In this document: one piece after another, positions 44,401-50,701 of the stretch
How the letters are laid out: each line of letters opens with the position of its first letter
Numbering within the stretch: the first letter of the stretch is position 1
Assembly: GCA_965216315.1 (NCBI GenBank)
Contig: CBDCFN010000016.1
Coordinates: 160,001 to 224,000 of the forward strand
DNA length: 64,000 bases
Direction of reading: 5' to 3'
Source of the DNA: a bacterium
GTDB taxonomy: Bacteria > UBA10199 > 2-02-FULL-50-16 > JAJFLM01
Notes under the pieces: model-generated
What the model saw: the letters and a program-made list of their open reading frames with translations, nothing else
Told to the model about the DNA's origin: nothing
The model's database searches: none
Translations under genes and position numbers: made by a program

Positions 44401-47400
44401 ATGATTTCGTCCTGGCGCGGATGTGGATTCGATTCGAGATGACTTATAATGCGACGTCGAATCTCCGGAAGATGTTCAAACCAGATATGTTTGCGGCCGC
44501 GGCTGAGAAATGATTTCAGGCTCCGGATACGCCGGACTTTTACGCCGTTGATAACTTGATCGAGGAAAGCGGCGATGGTTTGATTCCACGGGACCTTCTC
44601 GGTCCTTTTGTCGGCAGCGGGTTCGCTTTCCAGCTTCGGGACGTCCGTGGGCTGAGGAGCTTCCTCAGGAAGGGGCGCAAAACGTTCTGCGATCTCCATG
44701 ACGGTCCAGTTCAATTCTTCAATGGTGGCGCGGATTCTTTCCGCGGAGACGTTGGGAGGTGTCAATTTCTCCAAAACTCTTAGGACAGTACGTGTATCCG
44801 GATGGTCGGGATCAAGAAAACCGATTGTATAGATTGCATGATCACGGGCGGCCTCCAGGGCCGGAATGAGGTGGGCCTGGTCCAGTTCCTGCAGACGCTT
44901 TGCACCTTTATCGGTACTCTCAACAATGACCCGATGAGTTGCCGGGTTCCAGTCCGTCGCGCCGATGACTTGGATAGGTAAGGCGTTGTCCGCGGGGAGG
45001 AGGTCATTAGTGCTCGGTTGGTGAAGCATGGATCCGTCTTCCCGATACCGCGTCACCGTTTCGATAAAACGGTCTTTCTCTTTGTTAACGGTTGTAGCTC
45101 GGTAGATTGAAAAGGTACGGCCGTGCCAGACGATCAGGCGTCCGCGGGGATGATGTTTGAAAAAGAAGTAGCGGGCTCGCTCCGTCATTCCTTTGGCGGT
45201 GACGAGCATCGTGAAAGTCGTGCGCTCGGTGCTCGCGACGGCACCGGCGGCTTTAAGAATCATCCTGATAAATTTAGGATGTCCCAGATAACGGTTTCCG
45301 CGCACGCCGATATCGATAGTTCGTCTTGGGTCATTCCAGACCTGGACACTGGCGCCACTCGGCATGATGGCTTTTTCATGAAATTCCCCTTCCTCGGTCG
45401 AGACAGCGGGTCGCATTTGGACAAATGGAGTTCCTGTGTCTTGATCGTAGTCGAAACTTACGTGGCGTCCGAACTTGCGGCCCAATTGCAGGGGTTGAGG
45501 AAGAATGCGGTCTAATACAATCTCTGTCGGTTTGACCGCGGTGGCCATCAATAAGGTTGCAATCTGTCGAAACGTCTCATTGTCGCTCATTAAGGTGAGG
45601 AGTTGCTCTTTAGCGCGGGTACTTAGACGTTTAAGGCGGAGCAGGGCGGCGTAACGCTCAAGCCACTCGAGTCCTCTGCGGATGCGGCGGTTCTCTTGCG
45701 ACATATTTTGGAGGATCGCGTAGACGCTCAGCTCATCCGTATCATCCAGCATGTCGAGGATGACCTGCTCGTGCAGGAGTTGCAGCGACCATGATGAGGT
45801 GAGATCGCTGATTTTCCTCGGGAGTGTAGGCGGCGCTGGTTTATCTTGCTGCGTTTCCTCGACCGTTGGTTCAGTCGACTTCGGTGTCGCTGTTGTCGCG
45901 CTGACGACAGCGGTTTCTTTGCTCTCGACGGCGGCGACGAGAGTCGTGCCGGAGGCGATAAACATATCGGTATCCGCAAAGGGATTGCCATTATCGCCCG
46001 CTGCATCGGGAGAAACGACGGCGGGTTCGGTGTAGACCGCCTCCGCGGCGCGGGCGGCTGTGTCTGCAGCTGAATTTGCGGTTTCGTCGTGAACCACCGC
46101 GTCCGCAGCTGTCTGGTTCGCCGGCCTCTCACGGCTATCATTTTCGGGAAGGTCGGCTTGCGCTTGTTCGGAAGACTGAGGTGTTACGGTCTCCTGCTTC
46201 TCCGGTGCGGGTCCACCAGCGACGGGGATGCTCGGTCGTTTCTTGTAAATTGCAGTATCGCCTTCTAGGAGTGAAAGGTGGATGTGATTCGCCAGATCGC
46301 GGTGGTCGGTCAGGAAACTCAGTAGTGTCTCAAAGAGTCCTCGGTATTGACCAAGCAATTTTTGGTCATTTTTATATTTGGAATCTTTGCTGGCCTCGCG
46401 CCAGGCACTTTCAAAAGTGGCAATGCCGCTCGTTTGGAGTTGATTACAGTAGGCCCGATAGAGGCGCCACAGTCGATCAACGAAGAACATGAAATAGCGA
46501 GGGTGTCCACCGCCGACGGTCGGTCGGTGGATGGCGGCGACCTTAATGAAGATCATGCCGAATTCCGTGAAGCGCTCCGGGTCGATATCTCTGAAGAGTT
46601 TTTCGCCGAGATCCTCCGGGTCAATGTCAATCATGGGAGCTTCTGCCGCGGGCAAGGCCTCAATCAATTCGTTGTACAGAGCTTCTTGAAAGTCGCTATC
46701 ACGGGCTCCGATAAAATAGGCCAACAAACGCCTCACCATGACGGGGCTCAAGTGGAGCTGGGGATTGGTGTGTGCAAACTGGCGACTGGCCCGTTCCAGC
46801 GGATCAAATGTGTCTTGCTCGACGAGATCAAGATAGGTGCCGACCAGATCGCTCAACCCTTCTTCTCCCAGTAGGGTGGAATAATAATTATCACTCTTAC
46901 TGCATTCATCGGCCCACTCGCGGAGCAGGTCGCCGCGGTGTGTGCTTTCAGTAATTTCCTCGTAAGCTTGCGCCATGTTATCCAGCCCTAAGGGGGTCGT
47001 GGCATCTTGACTGCGGAAGAAGGCGGCTTCACCGGAAACGCCGAGGGTCTGCCGATAATGAAGCGTCATTTGGAAGAGCAGTGACAAGAGGTCGCGGGCG
47101 CGTTCTGTCGTGGGAGCGGTGTTTCCCAAGACGTGGGTCACATGATCTAGGCGCTGAGCGAGCGGACCATCATCGTCTTTGTGGCCCCAGCTGAGGCGCT
47201 CTTCATGTAAAAAGATCATGGCATGGGCAATCCATTCCGCCTGCGACATGGTTTCTAAAGGCTCTAGTTGGGGTGCTTCCTCTGTTTGCTGTCCGTCATC
47301 CGCCTGGAGACCAAGGACGGTTGCTGTATCGCTGTGAATTGTGGTGTCTCTATCTGGCGCTCCAGCCAAGCGGGCTTCAATGGCTGCCAGTTCCGCGTGT

Positions 47401-48665: not shown

Positions 48666-50701
48666 CGTCCCGCCTCCAGAATTTGTTGTCTCGATTCCTT
48701 GGGAAAGAGCGCGATGGCGGCCGCGAGATTTTGTTCAATCTTGTGGATGATGCGGGCTCGCCCGCCTTCGGCAAAAGCGTCCAGGCTGCCCGCGAGTCGG
48801 GCGAGGATGCGGAGAATGTCGGCCTCGTTGGGTTGACCTGCAGAGAGCTTCCAAATGCGGGCAAGGATGTTCGCGTGACGACGGAGTTCACTATTGTCAC
48901 GATCCGGATGACCGTCCCAAGCGCGGATCAAGGCTTTGCCTAAGTGATTGGGCCAGTCTACGGGCCAATTTGCGGGAATGCCCGTCATGGGGTGGTCAAC
49001 GGCGACACTGGTTGGACCTAAGTGCTTGCGAATTGCTGTCATGTTGATCGCCTGGATCTTATTTGAATTGGCGAGGGCCTTGAGGCCGTTGCTGATATTC
49101 GTTGTAAGTCCTTTGCGGGTTCGGCCTCTCCCCATAGCTTGATAGACGAGTTGGGTGGGGATCTCCTCGACTTCCTTGGTCCAGCGATAGAGCGAGCGGG
49201 TCCAGCGAACGAAGTCATAGGCCCACGGGTAGTGTGCTGCCTCGATGCGAGCGAGAACCGCCTGAACCAACTCTTCTTGGGACTTGGGCAAACGACGCTC
49301 GCTCATTTCGTGATACTCAAAGATCGACTCACCATCGAGTGCCGGGTGGAGCCAGAGAGGAAAAAGAACTCGAATTTCTGCCAGGTTCGTCTCGATAGAT
49401 TTTATCGGGAGGTCGCGGTCACTCTCATAGGCGCGGTTGAAACGTTGCATGACATTGCGGAGTTTTTTGTGAATGAATGCTTCGTTGTCGAGGCCGCTGG
49501 AATAGGTCCAGATCCGAGTGAGTGCCGTGACAACGGAGCGCAAGCGCAGTAATTCAACAGAGGGATGGCCGTCCCAGTTCATGACAAGGATTGCGGTTAA
49601 GTTGTTGGGCATGTCGAGCGGCCAGTTCTGTGGGAGATTTTCAACGGGTTTGCCCAGTGCCATTGCGACCGGCGCCAGCAGACGCCGGATCTGTCCCACG
49701 CCGATGGTGTCGGTTTCAGATAATTGGCGGAGGCCGTAGGCAATATTGTTACGCAGTCCCCGGGTGGTGCGACCCCGTGCCAATCGGTCGTGGACTAATC
49801 GCGACGGTATTTCCGCGATCTCGCCGGCCCAGAGATAAAGAGAGCGGGTCCAAGTGACGAAGTCATAGGGCCAGTCGATTACCTGGTCATGGATTTTCAA
49901 TGCGATGTCTTGAATTTGTTGCTCATAGAGCGCGTTCGTGAGCGCAACCGTACTTTCCGGATGATAGTCGTAGGGAAGCCGCGGGGGTCTGGGCTCAAAT
50001 GAAGGAGTGGAAACGACTTCTTCTCTCGAAAGGGTATCTGTTGCGGGCGCTTTCGCCTGGATTGGTGAACGCAGCGTGCTTGGCGGCTTGCTGGTCGTGC
50101 TTGTTTCGGGAAGAACCGGAGCGAGACGTGCGTTGGGTTGTACTGGAAAATGAGCACCCACTTGGTTTGCAAAGGTTTGGATGACACTATCCTGAATTTG
50201 GGCGGCCACCTCTTCGACCATGCCGGCGAGTTCTTTTTCTGATTTGTCGACTGCCCTGGAAACAAAGATGGTAATGCCGCCGAGTAAGGTCCTGATAAAC
50301 GCCTTGTCTTCGTCCGAGGCGGATAGGACGTATTGGCGGCTCCCCGTGATCGGACGGAGCACGACACGTATTTCCTCTAGATAAGCGATGCATTGCTCAC
50401 GGGGCGTCATGTGCGAAAAGGTACCATTGCGCCAGATGGGATCGGGGATAGCCGCTACGATGCGTGCGAGTTGCATTTGCGTTGCTTGGATGGAGCTCGG
50501 TTCCGTTTCGCAGACGGCGGTTTCAAGGCGGTCAATGGTCGGATAAAAATCAGTCAGTGAATGATCCGTGATGCCAGCCGACTGCAATTGGGACCGCACT
50601 TGTCCCAGCCCTTCGAGGAGTTGCCCTGGCTGGGACTGAGTCAGAATAAAACCGGCGGCGGCCTGCGAATAAAGCGCTGCCTGTCCACTGAAGAAGGTCA
50701 T
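48662..50701 (-). CDS. Hypothetical protein (679 aa) with two W(P/A)YDFVxWTRSLY domains
   Basis: Start reassigned to ATG 50701 from ATGA overlap, GGAGGG RBS and alignment with the giant protein N-terminus. Confidence 0.85.
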   Translation of the reverse strand: MTFFSGQAALYSQAAAGFILTQSQPGQLLEGLGQVRSQLQSAGITDHSLTDFYPTIDRLETAVCETEPSSIQATQMQLARIVAAIPDPIWRNGTFSHMTPREQCIAYLEEIRVVLRPITGSRQYVLSASDEDKAFIRTLLGGITIFVSRAVDKSEKELAGMVEEVAAQIQDSVIQTFANQVGAHFPVQPNARLAPVLPETSTTSKPPSTLRSPIQAKAPATDTLSREEVVSTPSFEPRPPRLPYDYHPESTVALTNALYEQQIQDIALKIHDQVIDWPYDFVTWTRSLYLWAGEIAEIPSRLVHDRLARGRTTRGLRNNIAYGLRQLSETDTIGVGQIRRLLAPVAMALGKPVENLPQNWPLDMPNNLTAILVMNWDGHPSVELLRLRSVVTALTRIWTYSSGLDNEAFIHKKLRNVMQRFNRAYESDRDLPIKSIETNLAEIRVLFPLWLHPALDGESIFEYHEMSERRLPKSQEELVQAVLARIEAAHYPWAYDFVRWTRSLYRWTKEVEEIPTQLVYQAMGRGRTRKGLTTNISNGLKALANSNKIQAINMTAIRKHLGPTSVAVDHPMTGIPANWPVDWPNHLGKALIRAWDGHPDRDNSELRRHANILARIWKLSAGQPNEADILRILARLAGSLDAFAEGGRARIIHKIEQNLAAAIALFPKESRQQILEAGR

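Follow-up and report, generated by a model that had tools for sequence, protein, structure and literature searches.

Very large, mostly helical and partly disordered scaffolds that act together with a superfamily 2 (SF2) helicase are known from the RNA degradosome (RNase E–RhlB) and the Ski2–Ski3–Ski8 complex, and both assemblies provide an analogy for the locus described here. The locus is located in a 64,000-nucleotide (nt) stretch of DNA from a bacterium of the GTDB lineage UBA10199 (contig CBDCFN010000016.1 of assembly GCA_965216315.1, forward-strand positions 160,001 to 224,000). This whole stretch is referred to as the window, and positions are counted from its first letter. Four genes on the minus strand code for a helicase, a protein of about 428 amino acids (aa) called mid, a 679-aa protein and a 2399-aa giant. 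The last two proteins share an undescribed domain of about 200 aa, named here the W-domain, which is the subject of this work. No sequence or fold similarity to the degradosome or the Ski complex was found, and the window operon contains no RNase or TPR domain.

Described SF2 helicases were also compared with the helicase of the window. A PDB profile match to archaeal XPB/Rad25 (E 2e-9) covered about 70 residues with motifs V–VI. However, unlike XPB, the window helicase possesses an N-terminal extension of about 115 aa, an insertion of about 250 aa between the RecA lobes and a C-terminal region of about 180 aa, none of them belonging to a known family, and it scored 18.9 against a cut-off of 610 with the NCBIfam XPB model. 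The comparison with the models of anti-phage systems in PADLOC (PADLOC-DB 2.0.0, 5027 models) revealed weak partial matches of the helicase to PbeA (E 3e-11 to 6e-4), limited to about 66 of the 722 profile positions in the C-terminal motif region, and no matches of the giant, 679-aa and mid proteins.

For the W-domain, the predicted structure was compared with the PDB using Foldseek, which gave no match at E ≤ 0.001. The top rows were generic alpha-helical bundles and designed helical repeat proteins (7uni, 5cwc and 5cwf), which resemble the W-domain in having all-alpha stacked helices. However, the best E value of 0.19, the TM-scores of 0.19–0.37 and the root-mean-square deviations of 8–15 Å correspond to the noise level for helical proteins. 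In contrast to TPR, HEAT and ARM repeat proteins, the W-domain has no internal sequence repeat and no match to the Pfam models of these repeats.

Three Copies of the W-Domain in Two Adjacent Genes

A first-pass annotation of the window had indicated three copies of one domain across two adjacent genes. The signatures were located by translation combined with a regular-expression scan, and a hidden Markov model (HMM) of the W-domain was run against all six-frame open reading frames (ORFs) of the window. Both analyses confirmed the arrangement, with exactly three copies detected by the HMM, two in the 679-aa protein (W1 and W2) and one in the giant (Table 1). The 15-nt ranges given for the signature in that annotation were correct and cover W-P/A-Y-D-F, the first five of the 13 codons in each motif.

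The window copies are 197–220 aa long (about 195–220 aa for the domain overall) and show 36–38% identity over about 200 aligned columns, 45 of which are invariant. The likeness of the copies is far beyond chance, with a BLASTP E value of 9e-23 for W2 and the W-domain of the giant. At the DNA level, only the motif region is alike between the copies, and it carries synonymous differences; the copies are therefore old and under purifying selection, and do not represent a recent DNA repeat. The DNA-level repeat search detected a single 52-nt stretch with 77% identity, located in the region encoding the N-domain described below, which also indicates that the duplication was not recent.

The copy of the giant had been described as lacking a GRTxxGL insert. 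A segment is indeed absent from the giant at this place, but it consists of the 12 residues (IAEIPSRLVHDR / VEEIPTQLVYQA) just before GRTxxGL, whereas GRTxxGL of the 679-aa protein aligns with NGDSSR-IL in the giant. In the alignment, the 12-residue insert was found in W1 and W2 only and was absent from all seven giant copies, those of the window giant and of six outside relatives.

Table 1. Features of the window (positions counted from its first letter) and related proteins and loci from other genomes; MAG, metagenome-assembled genome.
Feature	Position	Strand	Basis or description
W-domain copy 1 (W1), 679-aa protein aa 242–455	49337..49978	-	signature WPYDFVTWTRSLY at 49835–49873; HMM domain E 1e-74
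W-domain copy 2 (W2), 679-aa protein aa 460–679	48665..49324	-	signature WAYDFVRWTRSLY at 49187–49225; HMM domain E 6.5e-71
Single W-domain of the 2399-aa giant, aa 244–440	47346..47936	-	signature WPYDFVRWARSLY at 47802–47840 (giant aa 276–288); HMM domain E 6e-80
Gene for the 679-aa head-only paralogue	48662..50701	-	translation; ATGA overlaps at both ends; homology to giant aa 10–429
Gene for the 2399-aa giant	41466..48665	-	translation; relatives P0006–P0011; alignments; BLAST
mid gene, all-helical protein of about 428 aa	50698..51984	-	start MSYGIITPAG where orthologues begin; junction sequence; AlphaFold2 pLDDT 80.7
Helicase gene, 839-aa predicted SF2 helicase (ResIII + Helicase_C), first in operon	51989..54508	-	Pfam; motifs DTGMGKS and LDEADMV; 13 relatives; synteny in L001–L003
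P0006			2408 aa, outside W-domain carrier
P0007			2242 aa, outside W-domain carrier
P0008			1863 aa, outside W-domain carrier; identical to the L002 giant
P0009			2244 aa, outside W-domain carrier
P0010			2239 aa, outside W-domain carrier
P0011			1091 aa, outside W-domain carrier, E 1.6e-5
L001 (groundwater MAG)			helicase, mid, then 1807-aa giant with one W-domain
L002 (groundwater MAG)			helicase, mid, then 1863-aa giant, identical to P0008
L003 (groundwater MAG)			helicase, mid, then DnaE; no W-domain anywhere in the locus

Predicted Structure and Conservation of the W-Domain

W1 was modelled with AlphaFold2 on an alignment of nine copies, comprising the three window copies and those of the six outside relatives. 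Even with only nine sequences, the model was confident, with a predicted local distance difference test (pLDDT) score of 88.7 (84.9–88.7 in the five models) and a predicted template modelling (pTM) score of 0.84, and it contained ten helices and no strands. The prediction thus agrees with the folded module postulated in the first-pass annotation. In the model, the signature, WPYDF..W.R(S/T)LY, is placed in the loop before helix 2 (W36-P-Y38-D) and in helix 2 itself (F40...W43.R45SLY48), and the NWP.D motif lies in a long loop at residues 108–124. The sole weak block, residues 61–70 with a pLDDT of 56, corresponds to the insert that only the 679-aa protein carries.

Ten positions were invariant in the nine copies: Y5, W36, Y38, W43, L47, Y48, R98, P111, W119 and P120, that is three Trp, three Tyr, one Leu, two Pro and one Arg. 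No invariant Cys, His, Asp, Glu, Ser or Lys was present. The conserved Trp/Arg/Asp pattern noted previously held for the Trp residues and for one Arg (R98 of IRR), but not for the Asp residues and the Arg of W.R, which are replaced in relatives: P0006 and P0007 have Arg in place of D39 (Asp of WPYDF), and in P0011 R45 is changed to Thr and D122 (Asp of WP.D) to Asn. The isoelectric points (pI) of the copies ranged from 4.9 to 9.9, with six of the nine being acidic (4.9–5.5), a seventh at 7.2 and W2 at 9.9. With such a spread, the copies have no basic surface in common that could serve generic nucleic-acid binding.

The pattern of invariant residues suggests a core or helix-capping role and is unlike that of an active site. 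As all but one of these ten residues are Trp, Tyr, Leu or Pro, a non-catalytic function is favoured, and the W-domain would more readily be a structural or binding module than an enzyme or a binder of nucleic acids in general. The earlier wording, a binding or catalytic module, was too broad to fail; its binding or structural half is the one favoured by conservation and its catalytic half is disfavoured. The complex prediction with W1 and W2 as separate chains, run without controls, gave a score of 0.28 against a mark of 0.32, which counts neither for nor against their association.

Known Families and Distribution of the W-Domain

Family membership was accepted at the curated cut-off or at E ≤ 0.01. 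Searches of Pfam, NCBIfam, PADLOC and PHROGs returned no match for the giant, for the 679-aa protein (in its 679- or 748-aa reading) or for the 444-aa ORF upstream of it, which corresponds to mid. None of the six outside relatives had a Pfam match above cut-off, with hits searched up to E ≤ 0.1. The domain had been called unrecognised, and the empty results from all four collections agree with this. A profile of the nine W-domain copies compared with PDB sequences reached a best E value of 0.34, a profile of the giants 0.18, and the Foldseek search of the W-domain model against BFVD 0.64. Structure prediction followed by Foldseek, as proposed in the first-pass annotation, thus yielded a confident helical model with no PDB or BFVD match. 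By sequence and by fold, no known family fits, and the W-domain family is undescribed.

The HMM of the three copies, also proposed earlier, was built and used in an exhaustive HMMER search of 1,835,955,588 representative proteins at E ≤ 0.001. Only eight carriers were detected, the two window proteins and six outside relatives (Table 1). In all six of the latter, the N-domain precedes a single W-domain at aa ~180–440. The window giant fits this family architecture and the operon order, and showed 34% identity to P0006 and P0007 across some 1500 aa. Seven family members are 1800–2400 aa long and one has 1091 aa. Each of the eight large family proteins has one W-domain, and two were found only in the 679-aa protein.

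Other searches gave no additional members. With the 679-aa protein as query, a word-indexed search of 5.8 billion clusters returned nothing but the query itself, tblastn of this protein against phage and plasmid collections gave no match, and ESM Atlas look-alikes for W1 included no usable one. In the genome scan with two patterns derived from four giants, none of 199 pattern matches was confirmed, a result that does not speak for absence, as the giants of L001 and L002 are divergent enough to escape both patterns. A full-text literature search found no paper with 'WPYDF', and a preprint on giant genes of predatory bacteria (bioRxiv 10.1101/2023.11.21.568195) gave no hint of this family in its title or in the opening of its abstract. 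The W-domain family is very rare and restricted to uncultivated groundwater bacteria.

The 679-aa Protein as a Head-Only Paralogue of the Giant

The ORF of the 679-aa gene is open from a GTG at 50908, which would give 748 aa. The ATG at 50701 overlaps the upstream stop codon as ATGA, has GGAGG just 5' of it and coincides with the start of homology to the giants; these three features favour this start and uphold the length of 679 aa. In the 748-aa reading, the additional part (50702–50908, minus strand) shares 69 codons, read in a different frame, with the end of the mid gene, and an automatic ORF caller could misplace the start there.

The 679-aa protein consists of the N-domain (aa 1 to ~185, nt ~50147–50701), a linker rich in Pro, Ser and Thr, W1 and W2. 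In the giant, the N-domain (aa 1 to ~192, nt ~48090–48665), a linker and the W-domain are followed by about 1950 aa of further family-conserved regions. The similarity of both proteins had been noted for the W-domain. It extends further, as aa 10–429 of the giant and aa 4–443 of the 679-aa protein showed 37% identity (E ~1e-77), so that the entire first ~430 aa are homologous. This common unit, the head, comprises an N-domain of about 190 aa with the blocks EDKAF.R..GG and AGMVEEV.AQIQD, a Pro-rich linker and the W-domain. The kinship of the W-domains reported in the first-pass annotation holds, although the shared N-domain and the helicase operon had been overlooked.

In a tree of ten W-domains, W1 and W2 were sisters with a support of 91/92 and the remaining branches were unresolved. 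As W1 and W2 are sisters and only they carry the 12-residue insert, the W-domain was duplicated in tandem inside the short gene, and the 679-aa protein is a head-only paralogue. Compared with the architecture of the giant family, it has the N-domain and the W-domain, lacks the downstream part of ~1400–2000 aa and possesses a second W-domain. This form with two W-domains was unique among the eight matches.

The Helicase Operon and Its Conservation in Other Genomes

The order of genes on the minus strand is the helicase, a 4-nt spacer, mid, an ATGA overlap, the 679-aa gene, a further ATGA overlap and the giant. Such an arrangement is that of a tightly and, as predicted from the junctions, translationally coupled operon. 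No transmembrane (TM)-like stretch was detected in the four proteins (maximum Kyte–Doolittle 19-residue mean of 1.42).

The first gene is predicted to encode a member of the SF2 helicase superfamily, with Pfam scores of 35.5 bits for ResIII and 33.4 bits for Helicase_C against cut-offs of 22.5 and 23.5, respectively. Its 13 relatives, with 40–62% identity, are all metagenomic, and the sole names given to them are 'MAG: Deltaproteobacteria bacterium'. Five relatives of mid were found (39–52% identity), two of them on contigs of 26494 and 9043 nt, the same sizes as the contigs of two helicase relatives, which is suggestive only. The AlphaFold2 model of mid was all-alpha and two-part (pLDDT 80.7, pTM 0.63). 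A fold search of this model against the PDB gave a best E value of 0.67, the mid profile matched PDB sequences at best with E 0.022, to a designed coiled coil, and ESM Atlas look-alikes for mid gave no usable match.

A genome scan with the helicase alignment in 185,579 species representatives, the source genome not being among them, resulted in 34 pattern matches, three of which were confirmed (L001–L003, Table 1). L001 and L002 are 'Deltaproteobacteria' groundwater MAGs, in which the helicase–mid–giant order is kept and the same downstream flank, aminotransferase–CoaD–RsmD, is present. Identity between these two loci was 66–81% for the housekeeping genes of the flank, 56% for the helicase, 47% for mid and 31–38% for the giant. 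Because L001 and L002 have this flank in common and the 679-aa protein has no phage or plasmid match, the operon is taken to be chromosomal and vertically inherited. In L003 (4259–9035, plus strand), dnaE lies directly after the helicase and mid genes and the giant is not there, so the helicase–mid pair represents the constant core.

An additional ORF abuts the helicase start in L001 (8397–10007, plus strand, 536 aa) and in L002 (2–1357, plus strand, at least 451 aa). The two products show 25% identity, have no Pfam match and have no counterpart in the window. This ORF may be a fourth, variable member of the operon.

Discussion

The explanation we favour, with a probability of roughly 45%, is that the head of the giant, a soluble protein associated with the helicase, carries the W-domain as a helical module for docking or scaffolding that has no catalytic role, while the 679-aa protein represents a free head, acting as adaptor or competitor. 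The W-domain would be a self-contained, all-alpha, ten-helix unit with no enzymatic activity, and together with the preceding N-domain of about 190 aa it forms the conserved N-terminal head of the soluble giant family. Through this head, as a protein–protein docking or scaffold module, the giant could be tied into a complex that is centred on the helicase and works on nucleic acid in the cytoplasm. The 679-aa protein would then most likely be an adaptor, or a competitor for the same docking site.

Several observations weigh against this explanation. No complex prediction gave support for a binding partner, and the conserved aromatic residues are also compatible with a Trp/Tyr-lined pocket for a ligand or substrate. 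In L003, the helicase and mid genes occur with no adjacent giant, so the giant is not always encoded alongside. The giant evolves much faster than its neighbours (31–38% identity against 56% for the helicase and 66–81% for the flanks), which suits a conflict system at least equally. Moreover, nine sequences are a thin basis for invariant and variable calls, and genomic context was seen for P0008 alone among the six outside relatives, not for P0006, P0007 and P0009–P0011.

A wider and distinctly more tentative proposal is that the operon encodes an undescribed lineage-restricted machine composed of a divergent SF2 helicase, a helical protein of ~430 aa and a scaffold of ~2000 aa, in which the W-domain head would couple both the scaffold and the free head to the helicase. 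Such a machine might be a new kind of system for the surveillance or remodelling of nucleic acids. For at least two of its components, the predicted folds find no equivalent in the solved structures.

The strongest rival explanation is an undescribed system for anti-phage defence or other conflict, with the helicase as motor, the giant and its W-domain head as a fast-evolving sensor or effector and the 679-aa paralogue as a second sensor or decoy. The operon outpaces its flanks in divergence, with the gradient from helicase through mid to giant described above; the paralogue is lineage-specific and has undergone domain duplication, and the giant is missing from one of the four loci. These features fit defence, as do the weak matches of the helicase to PbeA, the best at E 3e-11, and to a dnd restriction helicase model, far below its cut-off, although the partial PbeA matches cover the generic Helicase_C motif region only. 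However, no PADLOC model matched the giant, the 679-aa protein or mid, no nuclease or other effector domain was detected, and no relatives were present in the phage and plasmid collections. In L001 and L002 the operon stands beside the same housekeeping genes, and the Pfam-scanned flanking ORFs contained no integrase, transposase or other defence gene. Taken together, a defence function is rather unlikely.

It is less probable that the W-domain is the catalytic domain of a new enzyme family. The domain is compact and confidently folded, polar positions are conserved in most copies (D of WPYDF, R of W.R, D of WP.D and N125), and no known fold found by Foldseek in the PDB or BFVD speaks against catalysis. 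On the other hand, R98 is the sole polar residue invariant in the nine copies, D39, R45 and D122 being replaced in relatives, and there is no invariant Cys, His, Ser, Lys or Glu. W2 keeps the pattern of W1, so that neither of the two stands out as the degenerate or the active one.

Quite improbable is also the binding of nucleic acid by the W-domain in order to present a substrate to the helicase. The operon link to an SF2 helicase and the basic character of W2 (pI 9.9) would be consistent with such a role, but six of the nine copies are acidic and the seventh is near neutral at pI 7.2, no helix-turn-helix, OB or other such family was matched in Pfam, and no fold match to DNA- or RNA-binding proteins rose above noise.

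In the least probable explanation, the giant and the 679-aa protein would be secreted by a possibly host-dependent bacterium with a small genome to interact with its host or prey, and the W-domain would bind a target in another cell. This explanation draws on the source contig of only ~2.40 Mb, on the superficially alike N-termini of the operon proteins and on the large size, fast evolution and orphan status of proteins whose long disordered linkers are acidic or rich in Pro. It is opposed by the lack of any signal peptide-like or TM-like stretch, by profile–profile comparison (probabilities of 1–16%), which did not support the N-terminal likeness, by translational coupling to a helicase, a cytoplasmic enzyme, and by the absence of secretion-system genes among the Pfam-scanned window ORFs and of Pfam trafficking or toxin domains in both proteins.

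The W-domain and its carrier proteins stand outside every described family or solved fold, yet the domain is predicted to fold confidently from nine sequences. They represent a small and tractable piece of microbial dark matter, with a 200-aa domain suitable for structure work and a four-gene operon suitable for co-expression. If the operon does encode a new helicase-based machine, for defence, RNA/DNA remodelling or chromosome handling, the presence of the W-domain would be diagnostic for it. The reach of these findings is limited to eight proteins among 1.84 billion representatives, from uncultivated groundwater bacteria only, and the functional role is one that we infer.

Additional Features of the Neighbouring ORFs and of the Giants

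A large orphan ORF of 1157 aa is located at 56881–60354 (plus strand) of the window, 2.4 kb from the operon. Searches of Pfam and PHROGs gave no match for it, and it does not resemble the operon proteins. An N-terminal module or secretion signal shared by all operon proteins and this neighbour was considered and rejected, as hhalign of the first 100 aa of the helicases, mid proteins and giants gave probabilities of 1.7, 0.8 and 16.5%.

The giant of the window contains a tandem repeat of a helical module of ~90 aa (PW.Q...HLVRIA.I.T) at aa ~1375–1576 (~43938–44543, minus strand), the halves of which matched each other in BLAST with E 1e-9. An AVVSPD motif was noticed at aa 882–887 (46005–46022, minus strand) within a long acidic Pro-rich and probably disordered linker. 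It is exact in four of the eight giant-family proteins scanned, with AVVSPT in P0009, and might serve as a short linear motif or mark a site of processing. The C-termini of P0008 (aa 1795–1832, the same as in the L002 giant) and P0009 are similar, whereas the C-terminal region of the window giant differs; the P0008 C-terminus gave a weak HicA_toxin-like Pfam match (E 0.07), below cut-off. The family's central region (aa ~907–1453 in the window giant, with IDIGV and ERAR.FFF.H.P blocks) is doubled in P0010 (aa ~1221–1748; second BLAST segment with E 3e-7) and, by eye, seemingly in P0009 too.

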